Shown piece after piece: positions 27,907 to 56,795 of a DNA stretch of 64,000 nucleotides. The position numbers and the translations under genes were made by a program. Numbering within the stretch: position 1 is the first letter of the stretch; the number at the start of each line of letters is the position of its first letter. The DNA is from Thermoguttaceae bacterium (lineage in GTDB: Bacteria; Planctomycetota; Planctomycetia; Pirellulales; Thermoguttaceae): assembly GCA_045599605.1 (NCBI GenBank), contig JAZRWE010000033.1, forward strand, positions 85,687 through 149,686. Reading direction: 5' to 3'. Under the pieces are notes generated by a model that ran no database searches, was not told the origin of the DNA, and was given only the letters and a program-made list of their open reading frames with translations.

Positions 27907-30900
27907 ATGAATTTCATCTGGAAACTCACGCTGTCGCGGATGTTGCGGCAGAAGGTGCGGCTCTTGTTCGTCTTGCTCGCGATCGCGGCTTCGTCGTGTT
28001 TAGTCGTCTGGACGATCGGCGGATTCCAAGCGCTCTTTATTGACGCGACGACCGGCGACGTCGACCACCTCGGCAATTACGACCTCCGCGTCGCCGCGGC
28101 GTTGCCTACCTCTATGCCCGACTTGCAAGCGCAAAACGCGCAAGGAGGCAAGGGAAACGAACGCGCTTTTAAAAGTCCGTTGGCGCGACCCGACGACAAG
28201 CAAAAACAGAACGCCGAAAAAGACGCTAAGAAGCCCGTTGCGGAAGAAAAAAATGAAGAGAGCGTAAATGAGCGTTCCGAATCGGAAAACGCTAGCGGCG
28301 AGCCTCAAAACGGCGCCAATGGGCGTTCTGAGAACGCGAACAAGCCTCGCGGAGGCCCTCGCGGCGGTTTCGGAGGACGGATGTTCGGCATGGGCGCGCC
28401 CGCGCTCGAGATACCCGAGACGCTAGCGGCCGAGATGCGCGCCGACGACGCCGTCGCGATCTGCGACGAAGTCTCGACGTTGAGGATGTACGTCTATTCC
28501 CCGGGCGTTGAGACGTCGATCTTAGAAGATTCCGACGGGGTCGACGAGGGCTTGAAACCGACGCTGAAACGCGCGTTGTCGATCACCGACGAAGAACTAG
28601 CGGCGGTAGGCGAAGCGCCGAAAGGCGTCGATCCGGAACTGCATCGCAAGGCGTTGGCGGCGTATCGCGCGACGATGGGAACGCCGTTGGGCAAAGGTTC
28701 GACTTTCCAAGCGACTACCGCCGGAAACTCGCCTTACGAGATACAAGAAGGGCGATGGTTTGAAAGTAAAGCCGCCGACGGAACCGTTCCTTTTGAAGCC
28801 GTTTTGACGACGAAGGGCGTCGCGAAATTTAACGCGAAAGTCGGCGATACGATCTTATTGCTCGACAACTCCTCGCAGCTGGGGATCTCCGCGGAATATC
28901 AGTTGAGCGTCGTCGGGATCGTCGACGACGTCGAGACCGATAGCTTTTACGTCTCGCGAGAATTGGCGAACGCGATATCCAAGTCGCCGGTCAAGACGAA
29001 CTCGTTGTATGTGAAGTTACGCGGCGACGTCAACGAATTTCGCGATCGTTGGAACGCGAGATTTGAGAAGGAACTGCCCGGCGCCAAGGCGGTGACGAAG
29101 GAAGAGATCAAAGAGGCGATCGCGAACGCGATGCGCGATAATCAGGCGTTCAAGTACCAATTTGCGAGCGGGACGTTGCTTGCGGCGTTGGCGGCGTTAT
29201 TGATAGTCTTCACGGCGTTGAATATGAGCGTCGACGAGGAAAAGCGTCTTATCGCGTTCTATCGTCTTGCGGGTCTAACGCGTTCTCAAGTCGGGCGATC
29301 GATCTTGATCGAAGCGACGATCTTGGCGTTGCCGGGTTGGGTCGCGGGGATGCTCAGCGGTTGGGCGTTAGTCTCGATCAACGCGGGCAAGGTCACGGGG
29401 CTCAATCCTCAAACGGTCGGGTATTCGTTCGTTTGCACGTTCATCGGCGGCGTGCTCGCGGCAATGTACCCGATATTCCGCAGCGCGAGAGTTAGACCGC
29501 TCGACGCGATCGGCGCGCCGGAGAAGAAATACGATACCGCGAAGACTCGCCGTCGTCAGAATATCAACTGCTGTATCGCGACGGCGATCGGCGTGTTGGC
29601 GATAGCCGCCGACTTGTATTTGGTCCACCATTTACCCGGCGATAGTTTGAAACGCGCGGCGCTCCATTCCGGCTACGGCGTGGCGCTCCTCGCCGTCGGA
29701 GTCGTCTGCATGTTGCCGCTGACGATACGCTTAGCGGAAATGCTCTTATTGCCGATACTCGCGTGGATATTCCGTTTTGACGCGAAAGTCTTGCGTCGCG
29801 AATTGTCGGGCAACGCGAGTCGCGTTATCGCCGTTTCCGTGGCGCTTAGCGTCGGCGGCGGTTTATTCTGCACGATGCAGATCTGGGGATATTCGATGCT
29901 CGATCCGTTCCTGCCGGGTAGACGCACGCCCGACGCGTTCGCGGCGTTCTTGCCTAACGGCTTGCGACCCGAGATCGTCGACGAGTTGAAGAAGATTCCA
30001 AATATCGATATGGAACGGTTTATACCCGTCGCCGTCGAACAAGCCGCGTTTACCGCCGATCTGATCCCCGACGACGAGAGGAAAAAGGAATTCGCCAACG
30101 TCGTCTTTTTTGGCGTCGACGTTGAAAAAGCGTTTCTGGGAAGATCGCCGCTCGTCGGGATGCGGTTCCGTCAAGGCTCCGTAAAAGACGCCGTTAAAGC
30201 GATGAAAGACGGACGAGGCGTTATCGTGACCGATTCGCTGCCGGGCGATTATAACTTGAAACTGGGAGACACGCTGAAAGTCATACATCCTCGCGATCCA
30301 GAGAAAGTATTGGAGTACCCGATCGTCGGGGTCGTGTCTTTCCCGGGATGGCAATGGTTGTCGAAGACGGGCGGCGTGCGACGTAATTTCGGCCGATCCG
30401 GCGGCGTGGTCTTCGCTCGCGAGGATATTATCGCTAGCGACTACGATATCGAGCGCAGGTCGTATTTCTGGTTCGACTCCAAAGACGGCAAGATCGATTA
30501 CGCGTCGACGGAATTTGCTTGCGACTACTTAGCGCGTAAGAACTTAGCCGCCGACGTCGCCGACGGGACTATCGATATCGCCGACGTGTTCTCGCAGACC
30601 GCTTACGTCAAGTTGTCGACGCGAGAATCGTTGACCGAGTCGATCTCGAGTCGCGCGGATTCCGTGATCTGGGCGTTGTCCAAGACGCCGCTCACGACGC
30701 TGATCATCTCCGCGATCGCGGTCGTCGGCGCGATCGCCAACTCGGTGCGCGCAAGACGCTGGGTCTACGGCGTGATGCGCGCCGTCGGGATGACGCGTTG
30801 GGCGATAATTCGCGCTATCCTTGTGGAGGCGATATTGATCGGGGTCGTCGCTTCGATCGCGAGTTTTTCTTTCGGGTTCCTAGCCGCGCACGGCGTGTTG

Positions 30901-31080
30901 AAACTCGGACAGAGCATGTTCGGGTCGTTCGATCCTCCGCTCGTCTTGCCGTTCAAGGGGTTGGCGTTAGGTTTCGGCTTGACGCTCGCGCTGTGCATGG
31001 CGGCGGCTATTTATCCCGCGATCAAGACCGGTAGAACGGAAACGCTCAAACTCTTGCAAGGCGGAAGATCCGTCGAGTAA
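27907..31080 (+). CDS. ABC transporter permease with two FtsX-like domains (MacB/LolE-like, duplicated) and large extracytoplasmic domains
   Basis: The protein is 1057 aa. Two 4-TM FtsX-type modules are present (around LAGLTRSQVGRSILIEATILALPGW and VGMTRWAIIRAILVEAILIGVV). It lies immediately downstream of the ABC ATPase. Confidence 0.75.
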   Translation: MNFIWKLTLSRMLRQKVRLLFVLLAIAASSCLVVWTIGGFQALFIDATTGDVDHLGNYDLRVAAALPTSMPDLQAQNAQGGKGNERAFKSPLARPDDKQKQNAEKDAKKPVAEEKNEESVNERSESENASGEPQNGANGRSENANKPRGGPRGGFGGRMFGMGAPALEIPETLAAEMRADDAVAICDEVSTLRMYVYSPGVETSILEDSDGVDEGLKPTLKRALSITDEELAAVGEAPKGVDPELHRKALAAYRATMGTPLGKGSTFQATTAGNSPYEIQEGRWFESKAADGTVPFEAVLTTKGVAKFNAKVGDTILLLDNSSQLGISAEYQLSVVGIVDDVETDSFYVSRELANAISKSPVKTNSLYVKLRGDVNEFRDRWNARFEKELPGAKAVTKEEIKEAIANAMRDNQAFKYQFASGTLLAALAALLIVFTALNMSVDEEKRLIAFYRLAGLTRSQVGRSILIEATILALPGWVAGMLSGWALVSINAGKVTGLNPQTVGYSFVCTFIGGVLAAMYPIFRSARVRPLDAIGAPEKKYDTAKTRRRQNINCCIATAIGVLAIAADLYLVHHLPGDSLKRAALHSGYGVALLAVGVVCMLPLTIRLAEMLLLPILAWIFRFDAKVLRRELSGNASRVIAVSVALSVGGGLFCTMQIWGYSMLDPFLPGRRTPDAFAAFLPNGLRPEIVDELKKIPNIDMERFIPVAVEQAAFTADLIPDDERKKEFANVVFFGVDVEKAFLGRSPLVGMRFRQGSVKDAVKAMKDGRGVIVTDSLPGDYNLKLGDTLKVIHPRDPEKVLEYPIVGVVSFPGWQWLSKTGGVRRNFGRSGGVVFAREDIIASDYDIERRSYFWFDSKDGKIDYASTEFACDYLARKNLAADVADGTIDIADVFSQTAYVKLSTRESLTESISSRADSVIWALSKTPLTTLIISAIAVVGAIANSVRARRWVYGVMRAVGMTRWAIIRAILVEAILIGVVASIASFSFGFLAAHGVLKLGQSMFGSFDPPLVLPFKGLALGFGLTLALCMAAAIYPAIKTGRTETLKLLQGGRSVE

Positions 31081-40845: not shown

Positions 40846-42375
40846 TCAGTCCCACCACCAAGCGGTAACGTCGTTGTTTTCAGCTTGGGCGCGTTTGGCT
40901 TCGACCGTACCTTTTTCGTCGTACTTCATGTGTTCTTGATCGAGCGCGACTTGGGGTTCGATGGAGACGCCGCCGCCGGTCGGGTAGGAGACCATGTTGT
41001 TACTACGACGAACGGTGTTGACCGCGGTTTGCGCGAATTCAACGGCGTTGAGGTTTTCAGTTTGGTATTGCGCTTCGTCGGCGAAGAATTCGGCGTTCCA
41101 GTTGGTCTTGCCGTAAACGTTTTCCTTTTGGAGGTAAGCGGCGACGATGGACATATCGATCAAGTTACGGAGGTTAGCGTAGACCGGAACTTGGTCGGCG
41201 ATCTTTTCGAATTTTTGCGTGAAGCTCTTAGCGTAAGCGCGAGTCGCGGGGTTGCCCTTGCCCTTGTTGGCGGAACGAGTACCGTCGGCGGCGACGAGTT
41301 CGTCTTCGCCAAGGAGGTTGACGCCGTTGCCAACGAGTTGCATCGCGTTGCCGTCTTCGGTCTCAACGACGCAATCGTAGTTGGGTTGGAAGTACCAACG
41401 AACGAGGGCGTTGGAAGCGTTGTTGCGCGGGTTAGATTTATCGACGTAGGTAACGAGCTTGACGGGGGATTCTTCAAGACCGATACCGATGAGTTTCATA
41501 CGATAGTCGGCGGCGACGAGGGTCACGGCGAAGTTGGTCTTGGGGGAGACGCCCCAGACGGTGACGTTTTGGAGCCCGAGCGCTTCGCGGATACCGGCGG
41601 CGTATTCGACGCAGTCGGCGTCGTTAGCGACGTTCGGTTGAGCGGCGGTGTTCAAGTAGGATTGCATCGAGCGGAGACCTTCTTCGGTCGGGTCGATGGA
41701 GCAGCCGACTAAGCTCGCGCCTTTGCCGTTGGCGGGATAAGCGCGCATGGCGACGACGAGGTCTTCAAGGCGAAGAGTCGGACGACCGCTCTTCATACCG
41801 ACGGTGGCGCCTTCAGCGCCGACGGTCCAACCTTCCGCGGGACCGGCGATAACGACGTCGCCCGTTTCGGGATAAACGAAGACGTTTTCAATACGAGTAA
41901 GACCGGCAAGATTCGCCATTTCGTCGGAAACGACGCCGTTGTTGGCTTGGATCGCGGCTTCAAGGCGATTCAAGGAAACTTTACGCATCTTGCTGACGGC
42001 GCGCATTTCGCTCGGGACGCTGCGATAGGCTTCTTCGCGGATCGAAGCGAGAAGACCGTCGTCCATGGAGACGCGTTGCAAAACGCCGTTAGGATCGACG
42101 ACGACGCCGGAACCGTAGGAGGAACCGTTGCCGCTGTTACCGCCGTTGTTGTTATTGTTATTATTGTTGTTGTTACGGCCGCCGTTGTTATTGTTGTTAT
42201 TATTGTTGTTGTTGTTGTTACGGCCGCCGTTATTATTATTATTATTATTATTATTATTGTTGTTGTAGTTCTGTCCGAAAGCCGTCGACATAGGCGAATT
42301 CGACATAGGCGCGGAAAAGAGAACGATCAGCGCCAGGATCGCGCTTAAACGAAGGACGAAATTACTCCGACTCAT
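40846..42375 (-). CDS. secreted protein of unknown function with an N-terminal poly-Asn/GGR tract
   Basis: A signal peptide (LSAILALIVLFSAPMSNSPMSTAFGQ) is followed by N14-GGR-N14-GGR-N10-GGN and then a 400-aa globular region. No family was recognised. Confidence 0.7.
   Translation of the reverse strand: MSRSNFVLRLSAILALIVLFSAPMSNSPMSTAFGQNYNNNNNNNNNNNNGGRNNNNNNNNNNNNGGRNNNNNNNNNNGGNSGNGSSYGSGVVVDPNGVLQRVSMDDGLLASIREEAYRSVPSEMRAVSKMRKVSLNRLEAAIQANNGVVSDEMANLAGLTRIENVFVYPETGDVVIAGPAEGWTVGAEGATVGMKSGRPTLRLEDLVVAMRAYPANGKGASLVGCSIDPTEEGLRSMQSYLNTAAQPNVANDADCVEYAAGIREALGLQNVTVWGVSPKTNFAVTLVAADYRMKLIGIGLEESPVKLVTYVDKSNPRNNASNALVRWYFQPNYDCVVETEDGNAMQLVGNGVNLLGEDELVAADGTRSANKGKGNPATRAYAKSFTQKFEKIADQVPVYANLRNLIDMSIVAAYLQKENVYGKTNWNAEFFADEAQYQTENLNAVEFAQTAVNTVRRSNNMVSYPTGGGVSIEPQVALDQEHMKYDEKGTVEAKRAQAENNDVTAWWWD
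42146..42266. repeat. trinucleotide microsatellite (GTT/ATT on the + strand, equal to AAC/AAT codons on the coding strand), about 120 bp, interrupted twice by ACGGCCGCC
   Basis: Read directly from the sequence (gttgttgttattgttattattgttgttgtt ACGGCC gccgttgttattgttgttattattgttgttgttgttgtt ACGGCCGCC gttattattattattattattattattattgttgttgta). It encodes the poly-Asn tract. Confidence 0.85.
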
Positions 42376-43109: not shown

Positions 43110-46013
43110 ATGGATATGACCTTTATTACCAAACTCACGACGTTCCGAGCGACTCCCGCTGTTTTGGCTTCGCTTGTCGCTCTTTTTTTGAGCTCCGCAG
43201 CCACCGCGCAAGACCCCGTCGGCGCGAACGCTCAGCAGAACGTTGTTAAAGTCGCTCAACGAGGAGTCGTTCGTTCTTTATTAGGCGTGCGCGATAACGA
43301 AGCCGGGACGCGCGACGCGCGCCTTGCGCCCTCTTATAACGCGAGCGCTAATAACGCCAATACGACGGAACGTCAATCTGCGCGCGCGACGCGTCGCAAT
43401 TCCGACGCGATTCCTCAAGGCACGGTTCGTATGCGTTCTAATAACGCGGAACAACAAGCGAAGGATACCGCTCCCGCGTTTACGCCCGTCTCGATGACGC
43501 GAACTGCGGACGCGCAAGACGAACCGCTTCCGACGCTCGATATAGTCGAAGAACCCGCCGTTGTTGAAGAGCAACAAGTTCCCGGCGACGGCGAAGACGA
43601 TCGCGTTTTAGAAGAAATGCAACAAGCGGCGGCAGAAGCGCAAGGCGCGGACGTACCCGCGGAAGTCAAGACGCGCGCGTTGGCTAACGTCGACGAAGAC
43701 GCGCCCGACGCCAAAGTGCGTTTGACCGATCTCGACGTTACAGAAGAAGCTATTGCCGAACATACGCAAGACGAACCTCAAACGGCGGTTGAGATCCCGG
43801 AACCGAAGACGATCGCTTCTAACGCGCCTCGTCAGACGAAGCCGGTTCTCGGTTTTGCGGATTCCGCGCGCGCCGTTCGTGATATGAGTTCCGACCTCGT
43901 CGAACAACTCAAGGCGCACGGCGGTTCCGAATTATACGCTCGTTGGCGCGCGTATAACGCGAGTATTCGTAGTCGTACCAATAGTTTGCAGACCGGCAAC
44001 GAGTTGAACAACCGCGCTCGTTTACAATGGTATGAGAAGTTGTATCAAGACCCGTTGAATTCCGTTAACGAAGCGGAAGCCGTTTCTCGCGCGTGGGCGG
44101 AAGAATTTATGGGGTCCGCCGACGACGTAATCGAAGGCGTTCGCAACGCTCGCGCGCATATGGGCGTTTCCGTTCGCGGTGAACGTCCGAAGCGTAAGGC
44201 CGTCGCTTCTTCTAACGACGCGCTCGATCAACTCAAGGCGGTATTGGTCGAAGCGGCTTCTTTACACGCCAAGGCAGTCGCGCCTTGCAGTAAGAACGAT
44301 CTTGCCGCCGTTATGAACGAAGCGTATTCGATCTTCTGCGGTCAAGTTCAAAGCGGTCACACGATCCCGAGTCGCGGTCGCGGTCAATACTTGATCGACG
44401 CGATGGAGAAGATGAACAAGGCCGCGTTGTACGAAGCGGGCGAAGCCGTCTTGTCGTTGATCGACGAAGATATGAAAGCCGCGTTGGCTAATATCGATTT
44501 CAATAGCTTAGAGAAAACGAAGATCGGCGACAACCAGATCGTCGGCCTTATTTCTACGGAAGCCGGCGATATCCTTATCGGCGATTCCAATCGCACGGTC
44601 TGGGATCTGGATAAATACCCGAAAGCTTGCTGCATTATCGATCTTGGCGGCAACGACGTCTATCGCGAAGGCGCTTGCGTTTTGGCGCGTCCTCTGCTCG
44701 TCGTTATCGACCTTGGTAAAGGCAACGACGAATATACCGGTAAGAATTACGCGATCCAAGCTGGAACCGTTCTCGGCGTCACGATGTGGTACGACGACGG
44801 CGGCAACGACTACTATCTCGCGAAAGATATTTGCCAAGGTTCCGCGATCGGCGGTTTCGCCGCGTTGATCAACGAAGAAGGCAACGATCGTTACGTCGGT
44901 TTCCGTCGCGCCCAAGGCGCCGCGCTTGGCGGTTTCGGCTTGTTGCTCGACCGCGCCGGTAAAGACGATTACCGCGCCGCGTTGCTCGCGCAAGGTTTTG
45001 GCGCGCCCGGCGGTTTCGGCGCTATCGTCGATAAGTCCGGCGACGACCACTACTATGTCGGCGGTTACTTCTTCGATTCTTATCCTGAACATCCCGGCTA
45101 CGACGGTTGGGGCCAAGGTATTGGCGCGGGCATCCGTCGTTGCGCTTGCGGCGGTATCGGGGTTCTTCTTGACGGCGCCGGCGACGACGCTTACGAATGC
45201 GACTATTTCGGCCATGGCGGCGGTTACTGGATGGGCGTCGGTATCGCTCGCGACTTTGGCGGCAACGATATGCGTTACTCCGCGACCTCGACGATGTACG
45301 ACGGTTCTCGCCGTCGCGAACAACGTTGGACGCGTTTCACTAACGGCTTTGGTTGCCATTACGCGGTCGGGTACTGCTTCGACGACCTCGGCGACGACGT
45401 CTACGGCGGCACGATCATGGGACTTGGCATGGGCTGGGACCTCGGTTCCGGTTTCCTCGTCGACTTCGACGGCAACGACTCGTTCGAAGCGACCGGCGGT
45501 CTGACGCAAGGCGCGGGCGGCGAAGGTAGTATCGGCGTCATCATGAACTATCGCGGCAACGACACGTACTTGGGCAACTACCAAGGCTACGCCAGCGGTC
45601 AGCTCTCCTATCACGCTCCTTCGAACTGCGGCGCGAACTTCAGCTTCGTCGTCGACCACGGCGGTAAGGACGTCTACGGCGGCGTCGGCAACGATCGTCG
45701 TCCGATCCAAAACAACGCGATCACCGTTCGCGGGTATTCCACCGGTCTCGTGATCGATCGTCCGTCCCCGACGGAAGAAAAAGATACGGCGAACGCCGCC
45801 GCGGCGACCGGTAAAGCGCAGATCGCTTCGTCCGGCATGTCCGCGAAGGAAGGTCAGGTCCGTACGATGGTCGAACCTCCGCCGCTCTACGACACTAACC
45901 CGCATCCGACGAGCAGCGGCACTAACGCGTTTAATCCTCAACCTGAATCCGGCGGTTTCGGCGGAGGTTGGGGCAACGGCGGCGGCCTCTTTGGTCGCGG
46001 CGGATTATTCTAA
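43110..46013 (+). CDS. large secreted repeat protein: N-terminal domain of about 470 aa plus about 12 degenerate repeats of 22-30 aa with a conserved (D)xGG(N/D)DxY core, and a Gly-rich C-terminus
   Basis: A signal peptide is present (ASLVALFLSSAATAQD). The repeats are DLGGNDVY, GKGNDEY, DGGNDYY, EEGNDRY, RAGKDDY, KSGDDHY, GAGDDAY, FGGNDMRY, LGDDVY, DGNDSF, YRGNDTY and HGGKDVY, each followed by Gly-rich hydrophobic strands. Confidence 0.7.
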   Translation: MDMTFITKLTTFRATPAVLASLVALFLSSAATAQDPVGANAQQNVVKVAQRGVVRSLLGVRDNEAGTRDARLAPSYNASANNANTTERQSARATRRNSDAIPQGTVRMRSNNAEQQAKDTAPAFTPVSMTRTADAQDEPLPTLDIVEEPAVVEEQQVPGDGEDDRVLEEMQQAAAEAQGADVPAEVKTRALANVDEDAPDAKVRLTDLDVTEEAIAEHTQDEPQTAVEIPEPKTIASNAPRQTKPVLGFADSARAVRDMSSDLVEQLKAHGGSELYARWRAYNASIRSRTNSLQTGNELNNRARLQWYEKLYQDPLNSVNEAEAVSRAWAEEFMGSADDVIEGVRNARAHMGVSVRGERPKRKAVASSNDALDQLKAVLVEAASLHAKAVAPCSKNDLAAVMNEAYSIFCGQVQSGHTIPSRGRGQYLIDAMEKMNKAALYEAGEAVLSLIDEDMKAALANIDFNSLEKTKIGDNQIVGLISTEAGDILIGDSNRTVWDLDKYPKACCIIDLGGNDVYREGACVLARPLLVVIDLGKGNDEYTGKNYAIQAGTVLGVTMWYDDGGNDYYLAKDICQGSAIGGFAALINEEGNDRYVGFRRAQGAALGGFGLLLDRAGKDDYRAALLAQGFGAPGGFGAIVDKSGDDHYYVGGYFFDSYPEHPGYDGWGQGIGAGIRRCACGGIGVLLDGAGDDAYECDYFGHGGGYWMGVGIARDFGGNDMRYSATSTMYDGSRRREQRWTRFTNGFGCHYAVGYCFDDLGDDVYGGTIMGLGMGWDLGSGFLVDFDGNDSFEATGGLTQGAGGEGSIGVIMNYRGNDTYLGNYQGYASGQLSYHAPSNCGANFSFVVDHGGKDVYGGVGNDRRPIQNNAITVRGYSTGLVIDRPSPTEEKDTANAAAATGKAQIASSGMSAKEGQVRTMVEPPPLYDTNPHPTSSGTNAFNPQPESGGFGGGWGNGGGLFGRGGLF

Positions 46014-51904: not shown

Positions 51905-54900
51905 TCACGGTTCCGTTCGCGCGTTTCTGAAACCCGGTCTATCGGCTTCGGGGCGTTTGTCGGCGAGGGCTTTTCCTTTAAGTATAGCGTTGTACAGCGC
52001 TTGCCATTGCGCGTCGTCTTTTGACTCGAACACGAGCGCGGGCGAATCTTCCGGCGCGTTCTTATCGGTGGAGAGTCCGCGTCCGCCTGCGGCTTTGGCT
52101 AAGTGCGCGTTGAGTAGCGCGCTCTTTTCAGGTCGCGTGAGGTCGATCCAGCCGAAACGTCCTATCCAGTCGGTGTTCGGACCTTCAAAGACTTCGGAAC
52201 GATCGCGATTTTCGCCCGTAAGACGTTTATGGCAGTCCGCGCATTTCTCGGCGTAGATCGGCGCGAGTTCTTTACTGAACCAGTCTGCGAGTCCGGCTTT
52301 ATCGAGCGGCGCCCAGCGGTCGCGTCTGCCCGCGGATAGCGGCCGCGCGTTGGCGTAGGTCCCTTGATAGATCGCGTTAGAATCGAGCCAGAAATAGACG
52401 CGGCGCAGCGAGACGTCGTCGACTTCTTGACCGCAATGCTCTTTCGTGAAATATTCAGGCAAACGACTAGCGAGCGCGCCCGTCGTGTACGGCATATTGA
52501 CCGCGGAAGTCGTCCATAACAGCCAATAGAATTGCACTAACGGCTTGCCGAGCGCTTGTTGGTCTTCCGGCATTTCCCCGGTAAGCATATCCGCTTGACG
52601 ATACGAACGACTCTTTAATAACAACGATTCGTAACTTGCGCTGAAATAACGAGTAGCGTCGCCGCTGAGATCGTATCCGCCCGTCGGGTCGGCGCCGTCG
52701 TGACAGGAAACGCAGTAGCGATCCAGTACCGGTTGCATCAGCGACGGATAATCGACTACGCCGGCGTCGAGCGAGAGATTGCCGTCGTGCGATTGGCGGT
52801 ATTCGTACGCGTCGTAGATAAAATCAGGCAATACGGGCATATCGGGACTACGCAGCGCGGCGGTCGGGCGACGGCTCTCGTCTTGCGCGGTCGCGGGTAT
52901 CGAGTCGCGATCTTCGTGACAGCCGACGCAGCCGATCGATTCTCCGGGCATGAATTGCGCGGCGCTCGTCATGCGCTGTATCTCGCGTCCTTCCGCGTCT
53001 AGCGCTTGGAAATAGATCTCGCGCAACGCCGGGACGTAGAAATTCGCGCTGCCGTCTTCGTCGACCGGGACTTCGCCCCAGCAACGCTTGGCGTAATACG
53101 TCGCCACGCCCATCGACGGCGATTGGTCGAACGAACGGTCATACAGTTCTTCCGATTTGCGTATCTGTTCCATAATGCGCAGCTTCTTGACTTCGCCGCG
53201 CTTCACGATCGGTTCGAGCCCTTGATAGACGTCCGCGAGAACGACCTGTCCGACGGGGTCGCCTTCAAGCAGATCCATGCGTTCGGGGATCCCCCATTCG
53301 CCGACGGCAACGGCGGCGCCGTCGATCTCGCATTGCGATTCGTGCGAGACGTTATAGTATTCCGCGAGCTTGGAGTACTCGTTGCACGCTTCTACGCCGT
53401 CAGTCTTGCGCAAGCCGCTAAATACTTCCGCGGGTTTGAGTTCCGGACGGAGTTTCGCTTTCATGTCTTTCTCGACGATACGCGTAGGCAGCACGGGCGG
53501 TCGCGGCGTCTCTTCCACCGCGATCGGGCAAAACGCGTCGAATTCCGGGTCTTCCCAGAGGAGTCGCTTCTCGCCGTCGCAGTCGAGCAACCAGATGCGA
53601 TAGCGTTGCGTTTCCGCGTCGTTTTCGTCGATACGCGTCGCGCCGCCGTAAGCGCATAACGCGCGTTCCTCGTCTAGCGGGAACGGGTCGCGATACGCGT
53701 AGTCTCGCGAGACGTCCACGACCGTCGGGAACTCTTTCGTCCAGTACTTGTAGCCGCCCTTATCCGCGCCGGCTTCCACCCCCATCGCGCGGTCTACGAC
53801 GCCGATCGCGCCGTGAGGATAGCCATGGTGAGGCGTGAAGGTCGCAAGGACTCGCGACGACGGCGCGCCGGGAATAGGACGCGCTTGTAGGATCGAACCG
53901 AAGTCGCGCAACGTGTTGCCGTAATAGAGTTGGTAGAGCGTTCCCTCGGGATTCTGCGTCCATAGCGATTGTCGGTACGTCAGGTCGCGGTCGACGTATT
54001 CCCAACGCGTGAAGATAACGCGTCCGTCCGCAAGGACTTGCGGGTTAAAATCGGAGAGCGTGTTCATACTGACGCATTGGATATCGTCGCCGTTCTTGTC
54101 CATGCGGAAGAGGTTAGAGGCGGGACCGGGTTGACAAACGGTGCGTCCGAAACGTCGCGAGGAGACGAAGACGATACCGCCGTCGGGTAATTCCGCGGGC
54201 GAAACGTCGAAGAACGGGCCGTTGGTCAGTTGTCTTAACCCTTTACCGTCGACGCCGACGCTCCAGATGTTCCAGTAGGAGTTGTTCTTAGGGCGGTACG
54301 AGAAGTAGACGGTCTTCGCGTCGTACGACAAGTTCATATCGTATATCGAGCCGTCGGGGTCTTCAAATATCGTCTTGACTTCCGCGGTCGGGTCGGCGGG
54401 ATCGACCATGCGTATCGCGCAACCCGGCGTTTGCGGCGTCGCTTGCCAGAAGTCGTTGCCAACGGAATTAGGACGTCCGCGCATCGCTCTCGCGACGTAG
54501 ATGAACGGCGGTAAGTCGTCCGTAGCTAGCGTTTCCGGATAATCGCTCGACTCTTCTTCCGGCTTAACTAAGTCGACGGCGGTGAAGGGCGCGTCGACGA
54601 AACCGTCGGTCGTGGCGTCAAGACGAACGCGGAGATCGCGATACTCGACGTCGTTTTGCCAAGAACGGAACGTGAATGTGCCCGCGCGTAATGGATCGGT
54701 CGCTTTCAGTTCCGCCTCGTGGTATTCGCCTTTATAAACGCCGTCGAGATAGAACGCGAATCCTGTTTCGTCGAACTCGACGCGTAACGTGAAGTATTCG
54801 CCGACGGGCACGTCGTACGGCACGCGCGTTATCGCGGTATAGTTTTGGCGATGCGCGCCGACATTGACGTGTTTCTCGGCGGGATTGAATCCCAACTCGT

Positions 54901-55267
54901 AGCCGTTGAACGCGTCGGCGCCGATCCCGGAACCGCTTATCTTGAAACATATCCCGGAGTACCCCGGCGTCGCGGCGTTGAAACGCAGGTCTACTTCGAT
55001 CGCGCCGCGCGTCGCGTTAGCCCATTCCTGCGCGTCGTAAGTCAGTCGCGAGCCGGAATCGCCCTTGCATAAGAGAACGCCGTCGTTAAGCGTCCAAGAA
55101 CCGCCGTACGCCTCGAAACCTTCCAACGGTCTTGCGGGGCCGCTCGGCGTAAACGGCATAGCGAGTATGCGTTCAAGTCGAGTAGATTCCGCGGCTTGTA
55201 ACATAGCGCTCGGCGAAGCGACGAAGACGAGAACGAGTAATATATAGCGTAGGCGTTTCAAGTTCAT
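51905..55267 (-). CDS. large secreted multidomain protein: N-terminal LamG/DUF1080-like domain, central TolB-like beta-propeller region, and a C-terminal region with three CxxCH heme-binding motifs (Planctomycete cytochrome-c-domain-like)
   Basis: A signal peptide is present (ILLVLVFVASPSAMLQAAE). The N-terminal domain ends with the DUF1080-like FTFRSWQNDVEYRDLRV. The CxxCH motifs are CVGCHED, CVSCHDG and CADCHKR. The length is 1120 aa. Confidence 0.75.
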   Translation of the reverse strand: MNLKRLRYILLVLVFVASPSAMLQAAESTRLERILAMPFTPSGPARPLEGFEAYGGSWTLNDGVLLCKGDSGSRLTYDAQEWANATRGAIEVDLRFNAATPGYSGICFKISGSGIGADAFNGYELGFNPAEKHVNVGAHRQNYTAITRVPYDVPVGEYFTLRVEFDETGFAFYLDGVYKGEYHEAELKATDPLRAGTFTFRSWQNDVEYRDLRVRLDATTDGFVDAPFTAVDLVKPEEESSDYPETLATDDLPPFIYVARAMRGRPNSVGNDFWQATPQTPGCAIRMVDPADPTAEVKTIFEDPDGSIYDMNLSYDAKTVYFSYRPKNNSYWNIWSVGVDGKGLRQLTNGPFFDVSPAELPDGGIVFVSSRRFGRTVCQPGPASNLFRMDKNGDDIQCVSMNTLSDFNPQVLADGRVIFTRWEYVDRDLTYRQSLWTQNPEGTLYQLYYGNTLRDFGSILQARPIPGAPSSRVLATFTPHHGYPHGAIGVVDRAMGVEAGADKGGYKYWTKEFPTVVDVSRDYAYRDPFPLDEERALCAYGGATRIDENDAETQRYRIWLLDCDGEKRLLWEDPEFDAFCPIAVEETPRPPVLPTRIVEKDMKAKLRPELKPAEVFSGLRKTDGVEACNEYSKLAEYYNVSHESQCEIDGAAVAVGEWGIPERMDLLEGDPVGQVVLADVYQGLEPIVKRGEVKKLRIMEQIRKSEELYDRSFDQSPSMGVATYYAKRCWGEVPVDEDGSANFYVPALREIYFQALDAEGREIQRMTSAAQFMPGESIGCVGCHEDRDSIPATAQDESRRPTAALRSPDMPVLPDFIYDAYEYRQSHDGNLSLDAGVVDYPSLMQPVLDRYCVSCHDGADPTGGYDLSGDATRYFSASYESLLLKSRSYRQADMLTGEMPEDQQALGKPLVQFYWLLWTTSAVNMPYTTGALASRLPEYFTKEHCGQEVDDVSLRRVYFWLDSNAIYQGTYANARPLSAGRRDRWAPLDKAGLADWFSKELAPIYAEKCADCHKRLTGENRDRSEVFEGPNTDWIGRFGWIDLTRPEKSALLNAHLAKAAGGRGLSTDKNAPEDSPALVFESKDDAQWQALYNAILKGKALADKRPEADRPGFRNARTEP

Positions 55268-55523: not shown

Positions 55524-56795
55524 GTGAAACGGTCGACTTCTATATGTGTTCTAACGCTATTGTTGACTATTGTCGTTTCCGGTTGCGCGCCCAAACAAGA
55601 CGCGGACGATAAGAAGAAAGAAGAAGGTCCGGTTCCCGCGCACGTCGTTCCGGTCGTGACTCGCAACGTCGTCGAGTACGCCGAGTTGACCGGTCGCACG
55701 GCCGCCGTCGAATCTGTCGAAGTACGCGCTCAAGTCTCCGGATATCTTGAATCGATCGACTTCAAGCCCGGCTCGATGGTGCGTAAAGGCGACGTGTTGT
55801 TCAAGTTAGATTCGCGCGTTTATAAGGCGGTATTCGATCAACGCCAAAGCGACGTCGACGCGAAAGAGGCGGAATTGAAACAACTTGCGTCCGACCTCAA
55901 ACGCCAAGAGACGCTCGATACGCGCAACGCGACCTCGAAACAACAAGTGGAACAAGCGCAGACGAATTACAACACCTGTCTCGCGCAACTTGAAGCCGCT
56001 CGCGCTAATCTCGAACGCGCTCGTATCGACCTCGATTACGCGACGATCGTTTCTCCTATCGACGGCGAAGTTAGCCGCGAACAGATCACCGTCGGGAACC
56101 TGGTCTCCTCCGGTACGACGCTGCTGACGAGAGTCGTAGCGGTCGACCCCGTGTATATCTTCTTTGACGTCGACGAACGCTCGTTACTACGGTTCCGCGA
56201 AGAATCTAAAGAGCTTGCCGCCGATGAAACGCTCACCGTGAAATTCGCGATCGGCGACGGCGCGTTTGACCGCGAAGCCGCGATCGATTTCTCGGAACCG
56301 CGTCTCAATGAAACGACCGGCACGCTCGAATTTCGCGCCGTCGTCGACAATAAGCCTAATGAAAAAGGGCGTCGCGACCTCATTCCCGGCTTGCGTCTGC
56401 GCGTTTTGTTCCCGGTCTCGCCGGAGTATGAGGCGACGGTCGTGCCCGAGGAAGCGATCGTGACCGACCAGAACGTCAAGCGCGTCTGGGTCTTGGGGCC
56501 CGACAACGGCGTTATCTCTACCCCGATCGAATTAGGACCGTTGCAAGACGACAATATGCGCGTCGTCAAGATGGGCTTGAAGCCGGGCGATAAAGTCATT
56601 GTCGACAACTTGTTGAAGATCCGTCCTAACTCTACGATCGACCCGACGGAAGCGCCCGCCGCGTCTACCACGCGCGTCGTTCGCGAAGACGGCACGATCG
56701 TTAATCCCGACGGCACGATAGAATACGACGGTATTTATGAATGGTCGCTAGAACGCGGCAAGGAGAAAGATCCTTCCGATTCCGACGACGCTTGA
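55524..56795 (+). CDS. RND efflux membrane fusion protein (periplasmic adaptor, HlyD/AcrA family), lipoprotein
   Basis: A GTG start has an SD (AAAGGA). The lipobox is VVSGC. Lipoyl/beta-barrel adaptor motifs are present (VEVRAQVSGYLESIDFKPGSMVRKGDVLFKLD) along with a coiled-coil hairpin. Confidence 0.8.
   Translation: MKRSTSICVLTLLLTIVVSGCAPKQDADDKKKEEGPVPAHVVPVVTRNVVEYAELTGRTAAVESVEVRAQVSGYLESIDFKPGSMVRKGDVLFKLDSRVYKAVFDQRQSDVDAKEAELKQLASDLKRQETLDTRNATSKQQVEQAQTNYNTCLAQLEAARANLERARIDLDYATIVSPIDGEVSREQITVGNLVSSGTTLLTRVVAVDPVYIFFDVDERSLLRFREESKELAADETLTVKFAIGDGAFDREAAIDFSEPRLNETTGTLEFRAVVDNKPNEKGRRDLIPGLRLRVLFPVSPEYEATVVPEEAIVTDQNVKRVWVLGPDNGVISTPIELGPLQDDNMRVVKMGLKPGDKVIVDNLLKIRPNSTIDPTEAPAASTTRVVREDGTIVNPDGTIEYDGIYEWSLERGKEKDPSDSDDA

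Follow-up and report, generated by a model that had tools for sequence, protein, structure and literature searches.

Gene and domain organization of the repeat protein

The DNA analyzed here is a stretch of 64,000 nucleotides from a Thermoguttaceae bacterium (contig JAZRWE010000033.1 of assembly GCA_045599605.1, positions 85,687 to 149,686 of the forward strand; hereafter the window). It contains a complete gene for a protein of 967 amino acids (aa), in which a preliminary description had flagged the region 44520-45780, corresponding to aa 471-891 of the open reading frame (ORF), as an undescribed repeat family. Our analysis predicted that aa 466-885 form a larger-period beta-solenoid with coils of approximately 27 residues, whose turns may bind Ca2+. 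The solenoid is preceded by a leader, an acidic region and a helical domain, and is followed by a C-terminal extension (Table 1).

The N-terminus, read by eye and with a hydropathy window, displayed K8/R13, a hydrophobic core at aa 14-30 and the junction ATA/QD, corresponding to the n-, h- and c-regions of a signal peptide. Hydrophobic leaders were also found at the start of the homologues P0023 and P0024. The protein thus probably carries a Sec signal peptide and would hence be secreted. In the full-length AlphaFold2 (AF2) model, aa 246-465 formed confident helices and aa 466-885 a beta-solenoid, while aa 34-245 are probably disordered judging from the low model confidence. The helical domain had no match in Pfam or in the Protein Data Bank (PDB). 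The solenoid contained 42 Asp, and its net charge was -21.

The preliminary description had assigned the C-terminal 420 residues to the repeats. The repeats were real, but an 82-aa Pro/Gly-rich tail, mostly of low confidence in the model, lay behind them. The AF2 model of this extension showed a short helix at aa 887-896 with a predicted local distance difference test score (pLDDT) of ~76 and low confidence beyond it, several segments being below 50. The tail at aa 898-967 (45801..46010) read PPPLYDT..NAFNP..GGFGGGWGNGGGLFGRGGLF, with Phe as the last residue. It was kept only among close Thermoguttaceae homologues and was missing from P0024 and other PDZ-type members of the family. This Pro-rich, Gly/aromatic tail may be a sorting or anchoring signal.

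Twelve tandem units and their motif

Twelve units were recognized in aa 506-885, mostly 24-28 aa in length, with four carrying insertions (36-51 aa). The G-[NDK]-D turns were located at aa 514, 538, 565, 591, 617, 644, 691, 718, 761, 788, 816 and 852, and a degenerate thirteenth turn at aa 860. The spacings between the twelve turns were 24, 27, 26, 26, 27, 47, 27, 43, 27, 28 and 36 residues, the longer ones being canonical units bearing insertions. When the residues of aa 471-895 were shuffled 5000 times, the pattern G[NDK]D.[YF] arose 0.16 times on average and never more than 3 times, whereas the actual segment contained it 11 times. The residue autocorrelation within the solenoid showed peaks at lags of 26, 27 and 53, and a hidden Markov model (HMM) of the unit detected 12 significant copies in the 967-aa ORF and zero in the other reading frames of the window. 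Turn spacing, shuffle test, autocorrelation, unit HMM and conservation thus confirmed the earlier estimate of about 12 units, and a low-complexity or chance origin of the repeats was ruled out by the shuffle test and conservation. Tandem Repeats Finder detected no DNA-level tandem repeat in the repeat-coding region, indicating that the units are old and diverged rather than the product of a recent expansion or an assembly artefact. Two further ORFs over this region, 44508..45941 on the minus strand (477 aa) and 44926..45504 on the plus strand (192 aa), were rejected as genes, being shadow ORFs of the GC-rich Gly/Asp codons.

The alignment of 281 units from 24 homologues gave the consensus G-[FVI]-G-h-h-h-D-x-x-G-(N/D)-D-x-Y-x-(G/A), where h is a hydrophobic residue. 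Within it, the turn Gly was conserved at 98%, the following Asp at 99%, the preceding Asp at 75% (Asn in a further 16%) and the Tyr at 84%. The core initially proposed, (D)xGG(N/D)DxY, therefore held for its D, G, D and Y, which were invariant or nearly so in most units of the 24 homologues. Its second Gly was present in just ~41% of the units, the 'GG' being usually x-G. Among 119 family members, the G/D positions of most units were still invariant at ~30-35% identity.

Table 1. Positions in the window of the repeat-protein gene, its domains and units, and adjoining features.
Feature	Residues (aa)	Position	Strand	Basis
Complete gene, 967 aa and stop codon	1-967	43110..46013	+	ORF list
Probable Sec signal peptide, MDMTFITKLTTFRATPAVLASLVALFLSSAATA followed by QD	1-33	43110..43208	+	sequence reading, hydropathy window
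Acidic low-confidence region, net charge -16	34-245	43209..43844	+	AF2 pLDDT <50 over most; composition
Conserved all-helical domain	246-465	43845..44504	+	AF2 helices, pLDDT ~90
N-terminal cap strands of the predicted solenoid, without G-x-D turn	466-505	44505..44624	+	DSSP strands (domain residues 7-38), confident model
Unit 1, ACCIIDLGGNDVYREGACVLARPL	506-529	44625..44696	+	turn spacing, unit HMM, register layout
Unit 2, LVVIDLGKGNDEYTGKNYAIQAGTVLG	530-556	44697..44777	+	turn spacing, unit HMM, register layout
Unit 3	557-582	44778..44855	+	turn spacing, unit HMM, register layout
Unit 4	583-608	44856..44933	+	turn spacing, unit HMM, register layout
Unit 5	609-635	44934..45014	+	turn spacing, unit HMM, register layout
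Unit 6 with 20-aa conserved insertion, YFFDSYPEHPGYDGWGQGIGAGIRR	636-682	45015..45155	+	turn spacing, register layout
Unit 7, with conserved E696, F700 and Y706	683-709	45156..45236	+	alignments, register layout
Unit 8 with insertion, R742 and family-invariant H750	710-752	45237..45365	+	alignment, register layout
Unit 9, with W776 and family-invariant D777	753-779	45366..45446	+	alignment, register layout
Unit 10	780-807	45447..45530	+	turn spacing, unit HMM, register layout
Unit 11 with insertion and Y834-H835	808-843	45531..45638	+	alignment, register layout
Unit 12 with closing strand/C-cap	844-885	45639..45764	+	model strands, register layout
C-terminal extension: short helix, Pro-rich stretch, Gly/aromatic tail ending in GGFGGGWGNGGGLFGRGGLF	886-967	45765..46010	+	AF2
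Terminator-like hairpin, 18-pair stem (7 GC pairs) and T-run, 20 nt past the stop codon		46034..46083	+	
Divergent upstream gene, 509-aa DUF1598 protein		40846..42375	-	PF07643, E 2.9e-28

Predicted fold and searches against known families

The domain model was predicted with AF2 from an alignment of aa 462-897 with 118 family members (alignment A2), and reached a pLDDT of 93.3 and a predicted template modelling score (pTM) of 0.92, with no segment below 50. Its layout agreed with that of the full-length model, supporting the larger-period beta-solenoid proposed at the outset. Strands were strictly periodic, about two clear ones per unit. In each coil, a strand of 6-10 residues closed with the first Asp; a turn of five residues led to a second strand, four residues long and opening with x-Y, and a looser stretch with isolated bridge residues followed. 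The domain was closed by the N-cap strands and a C-terminal helix, and its coils are probably three-sided. When the coils were laid out in register, the turn residues were stacked; the twelve turns would thus align along a single edge, which acidic side chains would line in two ladders.

The repeat domain fits no named family in the libraries searched and defines a large uncharacterized one, in agreement with the preliminary description. In the 2025 copy of Pfam-A, no family was detected for the whole protein at E<=1 and none for the repeat domain at E<=10, and no NCBIfam 20.0 model matched the protein or the domain. PDB searches with the whole protein, the family profile and the single-unit profile gave no solved structure for the repeats. 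The only hits of the Pfam-A, NCBIfam and PDB searches, run with the protein, the domain, distant members and profiles, were weak PDZ matches in distant members. The Foldseek comparison of an AlphaFold model with the PDB, suggested earlier as a check, gave no significant match, and neither a pectate-lyase-like helix nor an RTX roll matched strongly at the sequence or profile level. The literature, searched for the motif strings and for planctomycete PDZ/beta-helix proteins, yielded nothing relevant.

Comparison with Ca2+-binding beta-rolls

The repeat shares several properties with the RTX rolls of serralysins, CyaA and HlyA: the domain is acidic, and the turn is rich in Gly and Asp, has one invariant residue of each kind and leads into x-U-x (U, hydrophobic). 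One Gly and one Asp are indispensable in RTX turns and in those of the ice-binding protein MpIBP (PMC6891781). The window turn keeps the same pair, in line with the RTX-like character ascribed to it from the first. We nonetheless consider it almost negligible in probability that the protein is a canonical RTX protein, one that bears a nonapeptide beta-roll and leaves the cell by type I secretion. This possibility was indicated by the resemblance of G-N-D-x-hydrophobic to part of GGxGxDxUx, by a HlyD-like gene (55524..56795) and MacB/FtsX-like genes (27907..31080) in the window, and by a weak Foldseek match (E 3.5) to the RTX domain of CyaA. However, RTX repeats have a period of 9 (18 per coil), the turn GGxGxD and Ca2+ on both edges, whereas the period here was 26-27 and the turn was D-x-x-G-(N/D)-D. 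The HMM of HemolysinCabind (PF00353) had no match even at E<=10, and the unit profile matched no RTX chain in the PDB, so that the earlier statement that this is not an RTX beta-roll stood. Substrates of the type I secretion system (T1SS) are exported by means of an uncleaved C-terminal signal (PMC6891781), whereas a leader-like segment of Sec type was present at the N-terminus here. The T1SS signature (C-terminal signal, no N-terminal leader, and linked genes for an ATP-binding cassette protein and a membrane fusion protein) was not found. The HlyD-like gene was located 9.5 kb away across aminoacyl-tRNA synthetase genes, and the transporter genes in general lay 9-12 kb off across unrelated housekeeping genes and were not syntenic in P0023.

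The predicted fold of the repeat domain superposed on the one-sided beta-roll of MpIBP (MpAFP) region IV (PDB 3p4g), a Ca2+-dependent roll, which was the top structural neighbour of the domain model and the sole one at 20% identity. According to a review of RTX structures, MpIBP region IV departs from the typical beta-roll: its twelve repeats are 19 residues long (XGTGND-XUXU-GGXUXG-XUX), and since Ca2+ is held by the XGTGND turn alone, every ion lies along the same edge, bridged by Asp (PMC6891781). Like the window solenoid, it is one unbroken run of ~12 coils, with one turn per coil that ends in G-N-D, follows h-h-D and precedes a strand whose aromatic or hydrophobic residue points inward. 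The 3p4g unit KIDAGTGNDEIYI resembled the window units IIDLGGNDVYRE and VIDLGKGNDEYT, and KID-AGTGND-EIYI in 3p4g can be compared with IID-LGGND-VYRE and VID-LGKGND-EYT in the window. The turn of unit 2, D-L-G-K-G-N-D, was equal in length to D-x-G-T-G-N-D of MpIBP and gave the best local match to 3p4g in BLASTP. A synthetic consensus query served solely to recover the 3p4g sequence and is not evidence of similarity.

The period was 27 in the window solenoid versus 19 in region IV, the extra ~8 residues making up the third, Gly/Gln-rich side. The window repeat did not conform to the 19-residue unit, the common part being only the ...G-N-D and the following x-U. The Tyr after the turn was nearly invariant in the window family, unlike in region IV, and the Thr/Asx ice-binding face of MpIBP had no counterpart in the window solenoid. 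Region IV is part of a T1SS substrate, a 1.5-MDa adhesin, whereas the window protein has a Sec-type leader, and the two belong to different phyla and have different domain partners (the helical domain and PDZ in the window family). As the similarity to 3p4g was limited to the turn motif, MpIBP region IV is the closest analogue and not a demonstrated homologue.

Conserved residues outside the motif

Apart from the repeat motif, H750 and D777 were invariant in 119 sequences, and R676, F700, Y706, R742, W776 and Y834 were nearly so, R676 being located in the unit 6 insertion that is conserved across the family. These residues span coils 6-11, including the segment 45192..45440 (aa 695-777). Y706, H750 and D777 shared one register position on the consecutive coils 7, 8 and 9, which makes them a candidate surface patch for ligand or catalysis. 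The model and its register suggest that the conserved non-repeat residues may form a ligand-binding or catalytic patch.

The presence of such residues raised the possibility of a carbohydrate-active right-handed beta-helix (lyase, hydrolase, epimerase or glycan-binding protein) with a groove made of the His, Asp, Arg, Trp and Tyr residues of coils 6-11, for which a period of ~22-27 residues is typical. The pectate-lyase-type helices (PL1/PL6, GH28, AlgE/AlgG, phage tailspikes and NosD) have coils of similar length, the coils of the window solenoid are probably three-sided like theirs, and one family member contained a LysM domain. These helices, however, have neither a strict sequence repeat nor a metal-binding turn in each coil (PMC6891781). 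In Pfam, neither Beta_helix, pectate lyase and NosD nor any glycoside hydrolase or lyase family matched at E<=10. Structural matches to such helices showed 4-13% identity with a higher root-mean-square deviation than 3p4g, and their scores are common among beta-solenoids. No genes for carbohydrate-active enzymes or sugar utilization were conserved nearby, and the PDZ partners of the family favour peptides over glycans. A carbohydrate-active helix was accordingly judged unlikely, although less so than an RTX protein.

A widespread family linked to PDZ domains

BLASTP relatives of the protein comprised an identical 965-aa NCBI protein (P0001, 100%), 22 proteins at 51-71% identity and the distant protein P0024 at 34%. 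The word-indexed search returned 24 proteins, every taxon-labelled one being from metagenome-assembled genomes (MAGs) of Thermoguttaceae/Planctomycetia, and none was named or had a Pfam domain. The cluster-member look-up for the window's own protein gave no names or accessions. P0024, a 783-aa protein, matched PDZ weakly and contained the helical region, and its repeats were the same as those of the window protein but more regular. Its relatives numbered at least 895, in Planctomycetota, Phycisphaerae, Burkholderiales and others. Their best label was 'PDZ domain-containing protein', PDZ was the only Pfam domain recorded, and no functional name was given.

At E<=1e-3, the exhaustive profile search detected 3,723 clusters (50% identity), of which 1,816 remained at E<=1e-30. 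The matches typically covered positions ~270-855, i.e. the helical domain and the repeats, indicating that the helical domain travels with the repeats. The members of the unnamed PDZ family (e.g. P0024, P0040 and P0095), with E-values reaching 1e-80 to 1e-130, were true homologues with the same helical domain, 12-13 repeats and the same insertions, and the window protein agreed with the full-length profile in helical domain, repeats, repeat number and insertions. Across the family, the modal period was 27, the repeat number was fixed at ~12 and the usual architecture was a compact PDZ protein of ~750 aa. The PDZ-type members have the N-terminal PDZ and no Gly-rich C-tail, whereas the window protein has the acidic region and no PDZ. 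Indeed, Pfam gave no match for an N-terminal PDZ in the window protein, and weak to clear matches in distant members. From these sequences and models, the Thermoguttaceae branch appears to have swapped PDZ for an acidic, probably disordered segment and to have gained the Gly/aromatic tail.

In reference genomes, 327 loci were found, of which the best 80 were all from Planctomycetes MAGs, many of them from rumen, gut or termite. Some Thermoguttaceae MAGs held two copies on different contigs (L013/L027, L069/L074 and L060/L080), which suggests paralogues within a genome. Unusual fusions of the helical and solenoid module (P0153, P0267, P0117, P0245 and P0270) had as partners a BlaR1/M56 peptidase with CarboxypepD_reg repeats, DUF4912 with two PDZ and LysM, an EEP-family nuclease/phosphatase domain, and C-terminal HEAT repeats. 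The fusions with LysM, BlaR1/M56 and CarboxypepD_reg point to the cell envelope.

The gut and rumen habitats of the organism would suit an adhesin-type passenger (autotransporter or two-partner-secretion beta-helix) acting in attachment on the cell surface, and the closest structure, MpIBP, itself belongs to an adhesin of Marinomonas primoryensis (PMC3492233). We regard this explanation as very unlikely, since no beta-barrel translocator, two-partner-secretion (TPS) domain or TpsB partner was detected, the compact PDZ architecture is unlike that of adhesins, and the repeat number is fixed rather than variable.

A proposed larger-period variant of the one-edge beta-roll

The explanation that we favour, with a probability of about 0.6, is that the gene encodes a Sec-exported envelope protein carrying a larger-period variant of the Ca2+-stabilized one-edge beta-roll. 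The product would be located in the periplasm or on the cell surface of a gut/rumen-type Thermoguttaceae planctomycete, and would consist of signal peptide, acidic region, helical domain, capped beta-solenoid of 12 coils and Gly/Pro-rich tail. Each coil would comprise strand 1 (h-G-h-h-h-D), a six-residue turn (D-x-x-G-(N/D)-D), strand 2 (x-Y-x-x) and a looser, Gly-rich third side, often with Q-G. The edge lined by the turns would bind a row of Ca2+, about one per coil, with the invariant Asp bridging neighbouring ions and the invariant Gly permitting the turn geometry, as in MpIBP region IV and RTX. Counter-ions would be required for carboxylates stacked at beta-sheet spacing, and the net charge of the solenoid would be more or less offset by about 12 Ca2+.

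In RTX domains, Ca2+-triggered folding has been argued to follow type I secretion (PMC6891781). In the window protein, the solenoid would cross the membrane unfolded and would fold only afterwards, when Sec export has brought it into contact with Ca2+. Once folded, it would serve as a rigid scaffold presenting the patch of R676, Y706, R742, H750, W776-D777 and Y834-H835 to a ligand. The analysis directly showed the repeats and their conservation, the lack of a match in the libraries searched, the family size, the confidently modelled solenoid and its structural neighbour, whereas Ca2+ binding by the turns, folding coupled to export, a patch for a ligand and the role in the cell are inferred. 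As PDZ domains, which bind the termini of peptides, precede the module in most members, and fusions to LysM and BlaR1 also occur, the ligand would most likely be an envelope polypeptide or a cell-wall component.

Several results weigh against this explanation. Foldseek against the PDB gave no match at E<=0.001 with either model, the best rows being spurious helical matches (E 0.25) for the full-length model and 3p4g (E 0.42) for the domain model. Sequence comparison with 3p4g revealed no detectable homology, the best local BLASTP match having an E-value of 0.052 in a single comparison, and hhalign of the unit profile with 3p4g gave a probability of 0.3%. In the PDB the unit profile found neither RTX nor MpIBP, and 3p4g was not listed by phmmer/hmmsearch. 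The window turn is one residue shorter than that of MpIBP in 11 of the 12 units, and the Gly residues that open the RTX turn GGxGxD are missing from it. The likeness to MpIBP and RTX may thus be convergent, or merely an Asx ladder. The argument from PDZ to the ligand is second-hand, the window protein itself having no PDZ, and the gene neighbourhoods in five family contexts showed no conserved partner to suggest a pathway.

The main rival is a metal-free beta-solenoid, in which the Asp/Asn/Gly turns form an Asx/Gly ladder held by hydrogen bonds and by stacking of the core Tyr. Asn ladders of this kind occur in pectate-lyase-type helices, and the absence of sequence homology to RTX or MpIBP repeats and of the RTX Gly-Gly start agrees with this possibility. 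On the other hand, twelve in-register invariant Asp, together with ten Asp three residues earlier, would be strongly repulsive without counter-ions in a domain so negatively charged. The top structural neighbour depends on Ca2+, and the pattern G-N-D-x-aromatic from turn to strand binds Ca2+ in 3p4g. A metal-free solenoid is therefore possible but doubtful in our view. The same degree of doubt applies to the proposal of a distinct, unnamed class of three-sided Ca2+-dependent solenoid with 27-residue coils and an RTX-like turn along one edge, which would form the Sec-exported core of a widespread PDZ-linked envelope family, with a new catalytic or peptide-binding His-Asp(-Trp/Tyr/Arg) patch on coils 6-11, as for example in an unrecognized envelope protease, a peptidoglycan-directed enzyme or a quality-control factor.

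To our knowledge, Ca2+-triggered beta-rolls are mainly nonapeptide RTX rolls, found in toxins and adhesins that leave the cell by type I secretion, joined by a single variant with 19-residue units. Should the 27-residue form in Sec-exported proteins indeed bind Ca2+, the turn motif would have been reused, or invented anew, within a larger solenoid. The larger-period beta-roll would also provide a name and a testable fold for an unannotated domain in about 3,700 protein clusters, carried by nearly all sampled gut and rumen Thermoguttaceae among others. The fixed tie to the helical domain, and usually to PDZ, suggests an unstudied envelope function. Being regular, capped and confidently predicted, the module could serve as a scaffold in protein engineering, a use to which RTX rolls are already put. 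Its type of fold is a familiar one; the finding is less a surprise in principle than a firm starting point for annotating the domain and studying its structure.

Genomic surroundings

The strong hairpin behind the gene and the divergent gene upstream of it indicate that the gene is probably transcribed alone. The neighbours were housekeeping genes (HemD, RhaA, ProRS, AlaRS and a radical-SAM protein) together with the gene of the DUF1598 protein. Synteny was kept among close relatives only, and the 51%-identity homologue was found in a different context. The DUF1598 gene adjoined the repeat-protein gene in close relatives (L005) but not in the contig of the 51%-identity homologue, and was unlinked beyond Thermoguttaceae. 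The DUF1598 protein had a signal-like leader followed by poly-Asn runs broken by GGR (aa ~37-90). On the minus strand, 51905..55267 encoded a 1120-aa protein with a 3-keto-disaccharide hydrolase domain and a hydrazine-synthase alpha middle domain (PF18582, E 1.2e-24). It also had a weak cytochrome c match and was syntenic in L004 and L005.

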